NCBI GenBank assembly: GCA_016234725.1
Contig: JACRAK010000029.1
Location: 1 to 55,976, forward strand
Length of the DNA stretch: 55,976 nt
Direction of reading: 5' to 3'
Source: Candidatus Azambacteria bacterium
Lineage (GTDB): Bacteria; Patescibacteriota; Minisyncoccia; GWC2-36-17; WO2-46-25
Positions 21,352 through 55,843 of the stretch are shown piece after piece. The notes beneath the pieces are model-generated. The model did not search any database, was not told where the DNA came from, and worked only from the letters and a program-made list of their open reading frames with translations. Made by a program: the position numbers and the translations under genes. Numbering within the stretch: the stretch's first letter is position 1; every line of letters starts with the position of its first letter.

Positions 21352-22740
21352 TTAACATGCGGACCGATCACGAAGCACCAGCATAACCGTCCTCAGTAAT
21401 ATTTTAATATCCAAAAAAAGCGACCAATTCTCGATATAATACGTATCAAGCTTGACCTCTTCTTCAAACGGCAGATTCGAAGACCCCGAGATCTGCGCCA
21501 TCCCGGTCATGCCCGCTTTCACCACCAGCAGTTTTTTATGATGTCGTTCATATTGGCCTACCTCTTCCGGCTCATGCGGGCGCGGTCCCACGAGGCTCAT
21601 TTCCCCTTTCAGCACGTTAAAAAGCTGCGGCAACTCATCGATGCGCGTCCTGCGCAGCGCTTTCCCGATACGCGTCACCCGCGGATCATTGTGCATTTTA
21701 AATAACGGGCCGCCGTCATTTCGCTCATTGAATTCCGCAAGCTGTTCTTTCATTTCATGCGCGCGATCAACCATGGAGCGGAATTTATACATCGAAAATT
21801 TCTTTCCTAATGTGATGCGGTCAAGCGCCACAAACACCGGCCCCTGCGAATCGAGTTTCACCAGTATCGCCGTTGCCGCAAACAAGGGCGACAGCGTAAT
21901 GAGCCCCGCCGCCGCGCCAACGCAATCCATGATCCGCTTGATCACCCGCCCCCACCCATCAAGCGCGGTGTGCTTCACCTCAATGAGCGGAATGCCGCCC
22001 ACCACGTCCACCTCCACATTCGTCGTAAGCGCCTGAAAAAGCGTCGGCGCAAAACGGAACGTCAAATGCCGATCGCGGCAGAATTCCGCAAGCTCCACGA
22101 TCGCTTCTTTGCCGTAATCCGCGCGCCCCACGATGACCGCATCAATGCCTGGGTTTTCGATCGCTTGTTTTATTCCTTCCAGATCAAGCGCCGCGATCTG
22201 TTTTACCACGCGATACCGCAGCGAAGGATTGCGTCCTATTTCGCGTTTAAGGATATCCGAAACCTCGTCATCGCCGATAATGAGCGCGCGTTTTACGCCA
22301 AACTGATATCGCACCGCGCAATACCGCTCCACCACGCGAAGCACCATCCTCCCTAAAAACACATAGCCGATCGTAAGCGCCCATGCGGCGATCACGATGA
22401 ACCTCGAATCAAACCATTCACGCGTGATAAAGATGTAAATGATGATGGCCATCATCGCAAACGACGCCGCAGCGACCACTTGGAAAAATTCTTGGATGAT
22501 GTCCCCGCGCCTTGAGCGATACAGGCCGATGAGCGCGAACATCGCCATGCAAAAAGGAATGAATGACAGAAGAATAATGATGTACTTCTCAAGCGGCAGA
22601 TTCAAATAAAAGAGCACCGGACGATACTGGCTGACCAGCGCGCTGGTGCGCAAAAAATACGCGGAGATGCCCGCGAAAAACAGCATGATAAAATCAACCG
22701 GCACAAGCGCGACCGTGAACAAAAGCGCCGCTTTTTTCAT
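21352..22740 (-). CDS. Exopolysaccharide polyprenyl glycosylphosphotransferase (WcaJ/WbaP-like)
   Basis: KFRSM, DPRVTRIG, IDELPQLFNVLKGEMSLVGPRP and GMTGMAQ. Confidence 0.93.
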   Translation of the reverse strand: MKKAALLFTVALVPVDFIMLFFAGISAYFLRTSALVSQYRPVLFYLNLPLEKYIIILLSFIPFCMAMFALIGLYRSRRGDIIQEFFQVVAAASFAMMAIIIYIFITREWFDSRFIVIAAWALTIGYVFLGRMVLRVVERYCAVRYQFGVKRALIIGDDEVSDILKREIGRNPSLRYRVVKQIAALDLEGIKQAIENPGIDAVIVGRADYGKEAIVELAEFCRDRHLTFRFAPTLFQALTTNVEVDVVGGIPLIEVKHTALDGWGRVIKRIMDCVGAAAGLITLSPLFAATAILVKLDSQGPVFVALDRITLGKKFSMYKFRSMVDRAHEMKEQLAEFNERNDGGPLFKMHNDPRVTRIGKALRRTRIDELPQLFNVLKGEMSLVGPRPHEPEEVGQYERHHKKLLVVKAGMTGMAQISGSSNLPFEEEVKLDTYYIENWSLFLDIKILLRTVMLVLRDRSAC

Positions 22741-22749
22741 AGTACCCGC

Positions 22750-22778
22750 ATCATAGCGAAATACCGCGTATTATTCAA
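22750..22778 (-). promoter_or_regulatory. Sigma70-type promoter, near-leaderless transcript
   Basis: TTGAAT-17 nt-TATGAT, ending 10 nt upstream of the ATG. Confidence 0.5.
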
Positions 22779-22900
22779 CCCGCCTAAATTTTTGCACTCA
22801 TGTGCACGATGCTGGCCACATATCTGCTCTGGTTCTAGTATTGCAACCGTATAAAACCGTTTGTTTAAAGAGCTACTTTTAGTGCAAAAACTTAGGCGGG
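22779..22900. mobile_element. Family F palindromic element (CCCGCC...GGCGGG ends)
   Basis: TIR cccgcctaaatttttgcact / agtgcaaaaacttaggcggg (19/20), flanked by TCAA on both sides. Confidence 0.8.
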
Positions 22901-23098
22901 TCAATCCCAAAAAATATGCCCGCTCCTCACTAATAAGGAAAAGGCGGCATATATAAGGAAATTCACCGCATGAAATTGGGAAAATATAAGTTCCTCAGAG
23001 CAAGACTTGAGGAACCTATATTTCGTCTTCACTCGGACGCTGTGCACGAGATTACTCGTCCCCGCGCTCCTCGCTAGCCAAAATAAGGAAATATAAAC

Positions 23099-23125: not shown

Positions 23126-23153
23126 GCATACGGGCATTCGGAGCAAACCGGTG

Positions 23154-23590
23154 AAGATGTACGTAAGCCGGATTCTGTTCCGCCAGCCGGAAAACCGGCC
23201 GGTCGGCGACGATCATTTCTCTTGTCACCGCATTACTGCGGTGATCATGCGACTACCTGCTTTCAAGGAAAGCATATTGTCTTGCACCCGACAAGGATTT
23301 GGCCGTTTCACCCCCGGTGTTGCCATCGGGGCTCGCCCTTGCTCGCTTGCGCGAGAAGGGCGCCTTCCGTCTTTCGTTGGAAAGCGTCTCTGTTCGCACC
23401 TCTAAGGTCGCCCTCGACGGCCGTTAGCCGCTGCCGTTGCCCGCCCAAATTTTTTATCTCTTGACTTTTTGTCGCGCATGCGCAAACGGCGTTTTTCGCG
23501 TTCGCAAAAAATAAAAAATTTGGGCGGGCGGGTGTCCGGACTTTCCTCTCCCCCGCGTTACCGCGTGAGAGCGATCGTCTGTGCATCTTA
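23154..23590 (-). ncRNA. rnpB: RNase P RNA with a family F-like hairpin insertion
   Basis: Universal motifs GAGGAAAGTCC and AACAGAATCCGGCTTA; P1 AAGATGCAC/GTACATCTT. Confidence 0.95.
23440..23528. mobile_element. Family F-like element inside rnpB
   Basis: cccgcccaaatttttta / taaaaaatttgggcggg, perfect 17-bp inverted repeat. Confidence 0.8.
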
Positions 23591-55554: not shown

Positions 55555-55843
55555 CGGGCTGTAGTACCTGCCCGCCATAAGCCTAACACGTGGTCGCCAC
55601 GGTATTCGCCGGAATATATTACTCTGTACTCCTGTGTATTTCTCTGACAGGCGATTGGCAGGCGGGCAATGGCAGTACGCATGCACTTGCCCGCCCAAGT
55701 TTTTCATCGGGCCATCGTATAGTGGTAGTACGCAAGGCTGGGGGTCTTGTAGTCTGGGTTCGATTCCCAGTGGCCCGAAAGATAAAAACTTAGGCGGGTG
55801 AAGGGTGCATGTAGTCCGAGTTCGATTCTCGGCATCCCGACCA
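55555..55843 (+). tRNA. Outer tRNA-Pro (probably UGG) interrupted by two palindromic insertions; function uncertain
   Basis: Exons CGGGCTGTAGTA | CAATGGCAGTACGCATGCACTTG | GGGTGCATGTAGTCCGAGTTCGATTCTCGGCATCCCGACCA; C1-G72 and A73 Pro identity, encoded CCA; inserts at 55567-55666 and about 55690-55802. Confidence 0.75.
55708..55778 (+). tRNA. Inner tRNA-Pro(GGG), intact, nested in the anticodon-loop insertion of the outer tRNA
   Basis: CGGGCCA...TGGCCCG-A; anticodon arm CAAGG-CTGGGGG-TCTTG; T-arm CTGGG-TTCGATT-CCCAG. Confidence 0.93.

Follow-up and report, generated by a model that had tools for sequence, protein, structure and literature searches.

The window examined here, that is, the whole 55,976-nt stretch of Candidatus Azambacteria DNA, is one contig (C19) of a 923-kb, 32-contig genome (G000) and contains three copies of a hairpin-forming repeat, family F, in which paired inverted arms enclose a variable cargo. 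Our analysis indicates that family F is probably the gene-less or cargo-carrying form of a miniature mobile element of Patescibacteria, the full form of which encodes a GIY-YIG nuclease, the putative mobilising enzyme acting in trans. Four observations carry this reading: an insertion polymorphism between sister genomes, a nuclease open reading frame (ORF) in longer partner elements with the same arms, the nesting of complete tRNA genes within split ones, and a recurrent junction rule at these nests. From them we infer that the GIY-YIG protein would be the mobilising enzyme and how cutting and joining might occur. The comparison set comprised 41 related genomes, ten of which belong to the same family; the sister genomes are labelled G001–G008.

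The arm CCCGCCYAARTTTTT was searched for in the window with at most one mismatch, and 100 dinucleotide-preserving shuffles served as the background. Six matches were obtained, forming three inverted pairs, against a mean of 0.08 in the shuffles, none of which (0/100) reached six. The arm search places them as follows.

22779-22793 (+) and 22886-22900 (-): arms of copy 1
23440-23454 (+) and 23514-23528 (-): arms of copy 2
55690-55704 (+) and 55784-55798 (-): arms of copy 3

These are the three pairs named in a first-pass annotation of this DNA, and the 16-mer aaaaacttaggcgggt is, as it had also stated, identical at 22886-22901 and 55784-55799. Copies 1–3 form long hairpins on both strands (folding z -5.2 to -7.5), and the arm search and folding together reveal near-perfect terminal inverted repeats in family-F elements. 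As a single strand, the DNA between two arms is predicted to fold into one long hairpin whatever the cargo. The interiors had been described as unrelated, which is correct among the three window copies; the interior of copy 1, by contrast, constitutes a family of its own with five copies in G000 and one in G003, shared at 71–86% identity with the tandem copies C27:9397 and C27:9521, with C4:12369 and C10:6786, and with a copy on contig C22 of G003. A genome-wide collection of arm pairs, which the same annotation had proposed, yielded 56 arm matches in G000 at no more than two mismatches, mostly in pairs 35–150 nt long (about 20 pairs). Besides pairs that enclose a tRNA or share the interior of copy 1, G000 has pairs with other interiors and bare palindromes with a 5–9-nt centre.

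A recent intergenic insertion

Copy 1 has a 462-aa gene (21352-22740, minus strand) on one side and the RNase P gene on the other, and comprises the following features.

22775-22778 (no strand): left copy of the duplicated target TCAA; the empty site in G004, G001 and G002 reads ...tattat TCAA tc..., with TCAA once
22779-22900 (no strand): copy 1, a gene-less 122-nt hairpin element with 19-nt arms CCCGCCTAAATTTTTGCAC / GTGCAAAAACTTAGGCGGG and an 84-nt interior
22901-22904 (no strand): right copy of the duplicated target TCAA, from the sequence and the empty sites

At the orthologous site in G004, G001 and G002, the alignment runs to ...tattat, passes through a single TCAA and continues into the downstream sequence, containing neither arms nor cargo; at the same site, G000 reads TCAA, the 122-nt element and TCAA again. 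Copy 1 inserted recently between genes and duplicated TCAA in doing so. The first-pass annotation had correctly placed TCAA on both sides of the copy (22775-22778 and 22901-22904) and had compared it with the right ends of IS200/IS605 elements. This analogy is not supported. Since TCAA occurs once in the empty site, and since other copies with the interior orientation of copy 1 are flanked by TTGA..TTGA, the tetranucleotide derives from the target and is not a fixed end of the element. The proposed abutting -35 box corresponds to a promoter-like match on the minus strand (TTGAAT at 22778-22773, with TATGAT); because this single consensus match compares with 0.9 expected in shuffles, it carries no weight. 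Alifold, applied to the interior of copy 1 in search of a structured RNA, revealed nothing beyond the arm helix and weak inner stems, whichever strand was folded. The broader proposal of constant arms, variable cargo and a non-autonomous element moved in trans is supported by the empty site in three sister genomes, the approximately 20 arm pairs and the full-length partners with the same arms.

The GIY-YIG partner gene

The window encodes no candidate enzyme, as had been noted, and the GIY-YIG nuclease ORFs all lie outside it. G000 contains three small GIY-YIG genes of 90–96 codons and one fragment. On contig C1, an 86-aa GIY-YIG ORF is situated exactly between the arms TCCTCCTAACTTTTTGAAC (21921-21939) and GTTCAAAAAGTTAGGAGGA (22189-22207), with its stop codon in the right arm and the flanks CTTG..TAAA; this element lies between dnaJ and a tRNA-Ala gene. 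In G003, a member of the same genus, an 84-aa GIY-YIG ORF is enclosed by the canonical family-F arms CCCGCCTAAATTTTTGTGC / GCACAAAAATTTAAGCGGG, and its product is 54% identical to the C1 protein. The two proteins match Pfam GIY-YIG with 62.1 bits (C1) and 62.4 bits (G003) and contain no further domain.

The association extends beyond these two genomes. A scan of metagenome contigs for family-F arms 235–265 nt apart returned 27 loci, 22 of them distinct, and 14 of the 16 distinct ORFs pass the Pfam GIY-YIG model. Among the eight loci without a Pfam-supported ORF, tblastn identified the same protein in seven, which have another start codon, an in-frame stop or a truncation, and in L234 it identified none. 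Altogether, 26 of the 27 loci hold an 84–90-aa GIY-YIG gene or its remnant, and many of these elements have short direct repeats at their flanks (for example TATG, CATA, GATG, CATC and GTTGAC). Moreover, a strong inverted repeat with a spacing of approximately 250–290 nt brackets 18 of the 30 GIY-YIG loci returned from the relatives; these brackets belong to several arm families, most of which begin with (A/T)CCC. The element arrives as arms plus cargo, often duplicating 3–6 bp, and its ORF-bearing form encodes the GIY-YIG domain only. The full-length form measures about 290 bp and consists of two 15–22-bp inverted-repeat arms and one 84–90-aa single-domain GIY-YIG gene whose stop codon lies in the right arm.

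HUH and IS110 enzymes had been suggested as candidate mobilisers in the first-pass annotation. The recombinases of G000 comprise two RAYT-like Y1 genes, one IS110 transposase (C32, a 2.3-kb contig) and one Xer-like recombinase, and all were rejected as mobilisers, with no link to family-F arms. The RAYT-like paralogues, of 249 aa (C26:4632-5381) and 243 aa (C30, L053:1210-1941), score 35.3 and 33 bits with Pfam Y1_Tnp and 38.4 and 36.2 bits with NCBIfam REP_Tyr_transpos, whose cut-off is 80. A palindrome of their own, TTACGAGGT(C)..ACCTCGTAA, flanks each of the two genes and gave 9–17 matches per search pattern in G000. The missing enzyme is probably neither HUH nor IS110: the Y1 genes carry a different palindrome, and the ORF-enclosing family-F copies contain GIY-YIG (26/27 loci). 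As a separate observation, the Y1 palindrome TTACGAGGT(C)GCACCTCGTAA is located at both ends of and inside each gene, with few other copies in G000.

Repetitive extragenic palindromic (REP) elements and REPINs are presumably moved by RAYTs, which are Y1 HUH transposases, and family F could by the same token be a REPIN-like repeat moved by the Y1 enzymes of this genome. Two RAYT-like ORFs are indeed present, and the hairpin shape recalls REP doublets. With the Y1 genes carrying the other palindrome, no such gene between family-F arms and GIY-YIG in 26 of the 27 ORF-sized elements, we regard this explanation as the least probable of those weighed here. A second alternative is an ordinary miniature inverted-repeat transposable element (MITE) of an unsampled DDE-type insertion sequence, with the GIY-YIG gene as a mere passenger. 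Terminal inverted repeats, 3–6-bp direct repeats and many gene-less copies are the classic picture of such an element. Against it, the nuclease ORF fits exactly between the arms, its stop codon falls within an arm, the arrangement recurs with several unrelated arm families, and no longer family-F element with another ORF was seen at the spacings scanned, namely 70–100 and 235–265 nt. We therefore consider a passenger gene very unlikely.

tRNA-carrying copies

Within family-F arm pairs, G000 carries tRNA genes for Glu-CTC, Trp, Val-CAC, Pro-GGG, Ala-CGC and Leu-CAG; within diverged arms, it carries Val-GAC, Val-TAC, Ile-GAT and Pro-CGG. Nests of this kind account for approximately a quarter of the tRNA genes in the 0.92-Mb genome. 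The tRNA-Glu(CTC) locus displays the arrangement clearly. The gene is intact in G004 and G001, where the anticodon region reads cttgg TTCT-CA-T ccaag and contains no arms; the G000 gene reads cttgg TTCT-TTCA[106-nt element with another tRNA-Glu(CTC)]CAAG-T ccaag. This defines a junction rule, in which x-CA-y of the intact gene becomes x-TTCA[element]CAAG-y; the CA, which reads TG on the opposite strand, belongs to either the anticodon loop or the D loop. Wherever the arrangement can be read, the anticodon and strand of the cargo tRNA match those of the gene that it splits.

Copy 3 follows this rule at a tRNA-Pro locus in the window.

55555-55843 (+): outer split tRNA-Pro(GGG) gene, 'type B', with CCA; 5' part CGGGCTGTAGTA..., 3' part ...catcccgacca
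55567-55666 (no strand): decayed second hairpin insert (arms CCTGCCCGCC / GGCAGGCGGG) located between GTAGTA and CAATGG in the D loop of the outer tRNA-Pro
55686-55802 (no strand): copy 3 and its junction, in which TG (U33-G34) of the outer anticodon loop has given way to CTTG + arms and cargo (55690-55798) + TGAA
55707-55779 (+): cargo of copy 3, a complete tRNA-Pro(GGG), 'type A' (ARAGORN; Rfam tRNA, 58.5 bits)

The whole tRNA that the first-pass annotation had reported in one copy is this type A gene; the 109-nt element contains no ORF, and the tRNA lies entirely inside it. The intact homologue of the outer gene in G001 has the loop ATGGGGT, that is, A-TG-GGGT against A-CTTG[..]TGAA-GGGT in the window, and GTAGTA and CAATGG are adjacent in it. 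At the corresponding locus, G007, G004, G008 and G005 have a plain tRNA-Pro(GGG) gene of the inner type; the cargo shares 94–100% identity with those of the first three genomes and 83% with that of G005, and the plain gene of G004 has the same upstream gene and terminator as the window locus. Nesting is reciprocal for both tRNAs. Type A lies within type B of tRNA-Pro in G000, and an intact type B lies within a split type A in G001; likewise, type I of tRNA-Glu lies within type II in G000, and type II within type I in G007 and G003. The tRNA-Glu(CTC) cargo type is a plain gene in G005 and G002.

The fate of the outer genes was evaluated with 13 ways of removing the element, of which 12 involved no substitution and one substituted CA/TG for the element with four nucleotides on each side, in 23 cargo-tRNA cases; success was defined as an ARAGORN tRNA with the same anticodon and strand. 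The CA/TG substitution rebuilt the outer tRNA in 9 of the 23 cases, and each of the 12 other rules in one or two. The outer genes are therefore taken to be dead and replaced by the cargo. Some have visibly decayed further, with a deletion at tRNA-Trp and a second insert at tRNA-Pro. tRNA introns (group I or bulge-helix-bulge) were rejected as an explanation: removal of the element alone succeeded in 2 of 23 cases, and no Rfam intron family matched. Inspection of the flanks by eye for a bulge-helix-bulge motif found no 3-nt bulges 4 bp apart. The match between cargo and resident gene is at least partly explained by selection, because an insertion into a single-copy tRNA gene is survivable only if the same tRNA is brought along, and the element then cannot be lost. 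Copy 3 may be described as a 'replacement cassette', in which arms and a whole tRNA-Pro(GGG) would have landed on U33-G34 of the resident tRNA-Pro(GGG); the insertion would kill the resident gene and supply its substitute, leaving the host unable to lose the copy.

GIY-YIG enzymes are classic homing endonucleases, and the nests could accordingly reflect homing, in which the nuclease cuts an arm-spacer-arm palindrome and the cargo, be it the nuclease gene, a tRNA or other DNA, is copied into its centre by double-strand-break repair; the arms would then be the target of the mobile unit and not its ends. The cargo is always central, small GIY-YIG genes adjoin tRNA genes in G000 (C1 and C9), and short 'empty' palindromes with 15-nt arms and a 5–9-nt centre do occur (C1:1445 and C16:51775; L002, L004, L006, L007 and L020). 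The empty sites at copy 1 and tRNA-Glu, however, lack the arms as well as the cargo, from which it follows that arms and cargo arrive together. Homing into pre-existing palindromes therefore appears unlikely, and a mobile element that carries its own arms is the preferred reading of the nests.

Several additional observations concern tRNA genes. A tRNA-Ala(CGC) nest at G000:C26:14300-14700 (L239) has two left arms and one right arm; its 5' half and arm are duplicated 65 nt apart, and its 3' half recurs after the right arm. A tRNA-Ile gene with the anticodon TAT at G000:C6:6661-6733 is found in G005:C21 (L009) as family-F cargo in the D loop of another tRNA. The only tRNA-Thr(GGT) detected by ARAGORN in G000 (C13:16171-16456; L237:72-357) carries a 212-nt insert at position 37/38, which lacks family-F arms and matches no Rfam intron at E<=0.01. 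The right arm AAAAAYTTAG+GCGGG coincides with the leader and first five bases of tRNA-Gly genes (G000:C6:15564-15578 and C16:57273-57287; G003:C35:237-320), which may be due to chance or may hint at the origin of the arm. A repeat of about 30 nt (..gtttcaagatttaagtttcatg..) holding TTCAAG is located beside tRNA genes (for example G000:C10:23480-23515, C16:22450-22560 and C9:5300-5380), with about eight further copies in G000 at 87–100% identity, and may be connected with the TTCA/CAAG junction. At G000:C9:5380-5512, the palindrome TCCGTCAGCTGACGGA interrupts the 5' part of a tRNA (GCGCCCTTAGCTCAGCTGGTAGA) within its D arm; beyond the palindrome, a GIY-YIG ORF begins just as the contig ends. 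G000 also has two tmRNA genes with different tag peptides (C23:42408-42813 and C30:60094-60478); the second could be derived from a second strain, from contamination (3.8%) or from a mobile copy.

The RNase P RNA copy and the spread of family F

Copy 2 resides in a structured RNA gene, which the first-pass annotation had overlooked, as it had the nesting of copy 3 in a split tRNA-Pro gene and the decayed hairpin insert in that gene.

23149-23590 (-): RNase P RNA gene, bacterial class A, host of copy 2 (Rfam RF00010, 111.3 bits; gathering score 100)
23440-23528 (no strand): copy 2, an 89-nt hairpin element in the RNase P RNA gene (arm search, folding and Rfam alignment)

The Rfam alignment contains 105 nt here where the RNase P model has 13. 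The same insert, 89–90 nt long, is also present in the RNase P gene of G001, G002 and G004; across the four genomes, the arms and subterminal parts are invariant and the central ~30 nt vary. In G003, a family-F hairpin replaces helix P3 of the RNase P RNA, as in other lineages (L102 and L131), and contigs of more distant relatives have 22 or 34 other letters at the copy 2 site. From these differing hairpins and letters among relatives, the site is judged to be variable and tolerant, probably a variable RNase P RNA hairpin in which an extra helix is harmless. Copy 2 would then be an old insertion that became fixed there. When RNA evidence was sought, the only contigs on the RNase P region were those of relatives, and RNA runs contained 6–10% of the sampled words; no RNA contig covered the 89-nt insert and no joint across it came from this organism, a result that bears on excision in neither direction.

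The exact arm was found in 13 of the 41 related genomes, against two matches for a reversed-pattern control; its carriers include eight of the ten genomes of the same family and extend to four other families of the class. When genome contigs, one genome per species, were scanned for two family-F arms 70–100 nt apart, at least 120 loci were identified in many Patescibacteria lineages, with record titles naming Uhrbacteria, Kaiserbacteria, Wolfebacteria, Buchananbacteria, Azambacteria and many others. Among the matches listed, 14 of 120 carry a tRNA. When 20 loci from other genomes were compared with Rfam, four contained a known RNA: one lies in 16S rRNA (L092), one in 23S rRNA (L106) and one beside 5S rRNA (L101), and the fourth, L067, matches RNase P only weakly, its 33.5 bits falling short of the gathering score. 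Separately, family-F hairpins recur at conserved sites in many lineages (L056, L058, L072, L074, L080, L081, L105 and others). With E denoting the element, these sites include tGAGCA[E]TAAAGGTT, ATCTTACA[E]TCAAGAAA and AATGTTGT[E]CTGCAACA, and those compared with Rfam gave no match.

The copies within and beside structured RNA genes raise the alternative that the arms act at the RNA level, as introns or as RNase III processing stems, rather than as mobile DNA, and that the outer tRNAs are functional after excision. The copies in RNase P and rRNA genes, the invariance of the arms in four RNase P genes while the centre drifts, and a compensatory T-stem change in the outer tRNA-Pro halves between G000 and G006 are in line with this explanation. 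Copy 1, however, is intergenic and has a target duplication. Removal of the element alone rebuilds only 2 of 23 outer tRNAs, and no single excision restores the 7-nt anticodon loop, whereas the CA/TG substitution succeeds in 9 of 23. The outer tRNA-Trp and tRNA-Pro are among several that have clearly decayed, and no Rfam intron family was matched. A purely RNA-level role is hence highly improbable, and insertion at the DNA level remains our preferred reading; RNA processing of the hairpin may be additional to mobility.

Proposed mechanism and significance

We propose that the nuclease would recognise the arm hairpin in trans, as the Ssn nucleases compared below recognise theirs. If each strand were cut 4 nt outside the stem, TTCA and CAAG would travel along with the element. 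The boldest form of this proposal holds that an 84–90-aa GIY-YIG single-stranded DNA nuclease and two arms are a complete autonomous transposon of approximately 290 bp, the smallest known, which moves as a folded single strand together with 4 nt of its former flank. Derivatives loaded with a tRNA would act as addictive 'gene overwriters', homing to the loop of the matching tRNA gene, so that rival alleles replace each other in turn across Patescibacteria. This bold form is conceivable, and we hold it only tentatively, with the odds somewhat against it.

Several points weigh against the GIY-YIG nuclease as the mobilising enzyme or against the steps proposed for it. The C1 arms match family F at 12–13 of 15 positions, not perfectly, and this is the sole family-F-like GIY-YIG copy in G000. 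GIY-YIG homologues occur in 37 of the 41 related genomes (up to eight copies each, some with in-frame stops) regardless of the exact arm, so the co-occurrence of nuclease and arm among the relatives does not discriminate. The nearest PDB sequences are the UPF0213 proteins 1ZG2 (E 9e-7) and 1YWL, and the protein may belong either to the Ssn clade (cd10448) or to the UPF0213/YhbQ clade. The interior of copy 1 was considered as a deletion derivative of the nuclease gene and this origin found no support, the score being 104.7 against 94.4 +/- 5.2 for shuffled sequences (best shuffle 110), which is not significant. No rule rebuilds 14 of the 23 outer tRNAs, because of further inserts or deletions in the outer genes. 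The junctions are of two types, either a simple duplication (TCAA, TATG) or CA -> TTCA..CAAG, and the cut 4 nt outside the stem does not account for the plain TCAA duplication at copy 1. No single mechanism was found to fit both: target-site duplications of 2 or 4 nt, serine or tyrosine recombinase cores, an IS608-type target plus end, P-nucleotides and blunt capture after loss of a 2-nt 3' overhang were tried, and none does so. A hydrolytic GIY-YIG nuclease cannot rejoin DNA by itself and would need host ligase or repair. Finally, the putative part of the nuclease in movement is argued from sequence comparison and from the Ssn analogy.

If the nuclease is the mobilising enzyme, a ~290-bp element would embody a new enzymatic route to DNA transposition, and the Ssn nucleases would gain a natural role as enzymes of selfish elements. 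The tRNA-carrying copies represent an in-situ replacement of essential genes, of which we found no description in the literature searched, and resident and incoming tRNA alleles swap roles between sister genomes. New in this work are the empty sites at copy 1 and tRNA-Glu, the link between arms and nuclease in 26 of 27 loci, the numerical test of the junction rule, and the reciprocal nesting of two allele pairs. In practical terms, hairpins in tRNA, RNase P RNA and rRNA genes of Patescibacteria disturb gene finding, and the leftover tRNA half-genes resemble split tRNAs. Family-F hairpins are also predicted recognition sites for single-strand-specific nucleases of biotechnological interest.

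Comparison with known systems

Among the matches listed by full-text searches, which leave out most subscription journals, neither nested tRNA genes in bacteria nor a GIY-YIG element bounded by inverted repeats was described. Like MITEs, it has terminal inverted repeats, a target-site duplication and multiple gene-less copies, and like the bacterial MITEs Correia/NEMIS, RUP and Nezha, it has a longer partner with the same ends. In contrast to MITEs, that partner measures ~290 bp and its sole gene encodes a GIY-YIG nuclease, not a recognised transposase; nor are MITEs known to carry a functional tRNA or to target the tRNA gene that matches it. The hallmarks of IS200/IS605 and PATE elements, namely differing subterminal hairpins, no terminal inverted repeat, no duplication and a Y1 TnpA, are absent from family F. 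Its near-perfect inverted repeats, the duplicated TCAA and the GIY-YIG gene of its full copies place it outside that group. With REP/REPIN elements, family F shares the character of a hairpin-forming non-autonomous repeat whose arms are conserved and whose centre is looser, and which a single-copy enzyme acting on single-stranded DNA hairpins presumably moves in trans. The enzyme differs (HUH against GIY-YIG), family F has no GTAG tag, and the RAYT-like genes of G000 are associated with the other palindrome.

Williams (2002) reportedly described integrative elements and prophages that use tyrosine integrases to insert in tRNA genes, including the anticodon loop, with tRNA function kept. Such islands leave a partial duplicate at attL and encode an integrase, whereas family F places a complete tRNA inside the split gene in about 110 bp with no integrase; the single Xer-like recombinase of G000 is located elsewhere than copy 3. 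Insertions in rRNA genes of the candidate phyla radiation (CPR) are said to have been reported by Brown et al. in 2015. Like rRNA intervening sequences, family F adds stem-loops at helix tips of structured RNAs and occurs sporadically among relatives, but it is one arm-conserved family that is also found in intergenic, tRNA and RNase P sites and is linked to a nuclease gene. Phage T4 SegB is a free-standing GIY-YIG homing endonuclease in a tRNA cluster. It resembles family F in the small GIY-YIG gene beside tRNA genes and in the selfish replacement of tRNA alleles; unlike family F, the Seg proteins have DNA-binding domains and lack inverted-repeat ends and gene-less hairpin derivatives.

The closest published system appears to be that of the Ssn GIY-YIG single-strand nucleases with their NTS/SRM hairpin repeats (PMC11893778). 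As described in the main text of that paper, SsnA is a 94-aa GIY-YIG protein that binds its hairpin repeat as single-stranded DNA only and cuts a few nucleotides 5' of the stem, and it still cuts a stem assembled from two separate halves (PMC11893778). It requires flanking bases that give the hairpin its orientation, with the C just 3' of the palindrome being critical and cutting being strand-specific (PMC11893778). A C at the corresponding position after the extended palindrome on one strand was found in 76 of 142 family-F elements, which is about the chance level. The ssnA gene is often flanked by the repeat, and the authors liken the NTS-ssnA-NTS layout to an insertion sequence; the main text of Chenal et al. 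(2025) mentions neither Patescibacteria nor tRNA (PMC11893778). On this account, the two systems share a single-domain GIY-YIG protein of ~90 aa (PMC11893778), hairpins oriented by their non-palindromic flanks, and a hairpin-forming repeat that also exists in many gene-less copies, as do the family-F arms of G000. They differ in that, to judge from the same text, each flank of ssnA carries a complete small hairpin, whereas the two arms of family F pair across the whole cargo. Relative to the Ssn system as presented there, family F adds insertion polymorphism with target duplications, tRNA cargo, and copies within tRNA, RNase P and rRNA genes.

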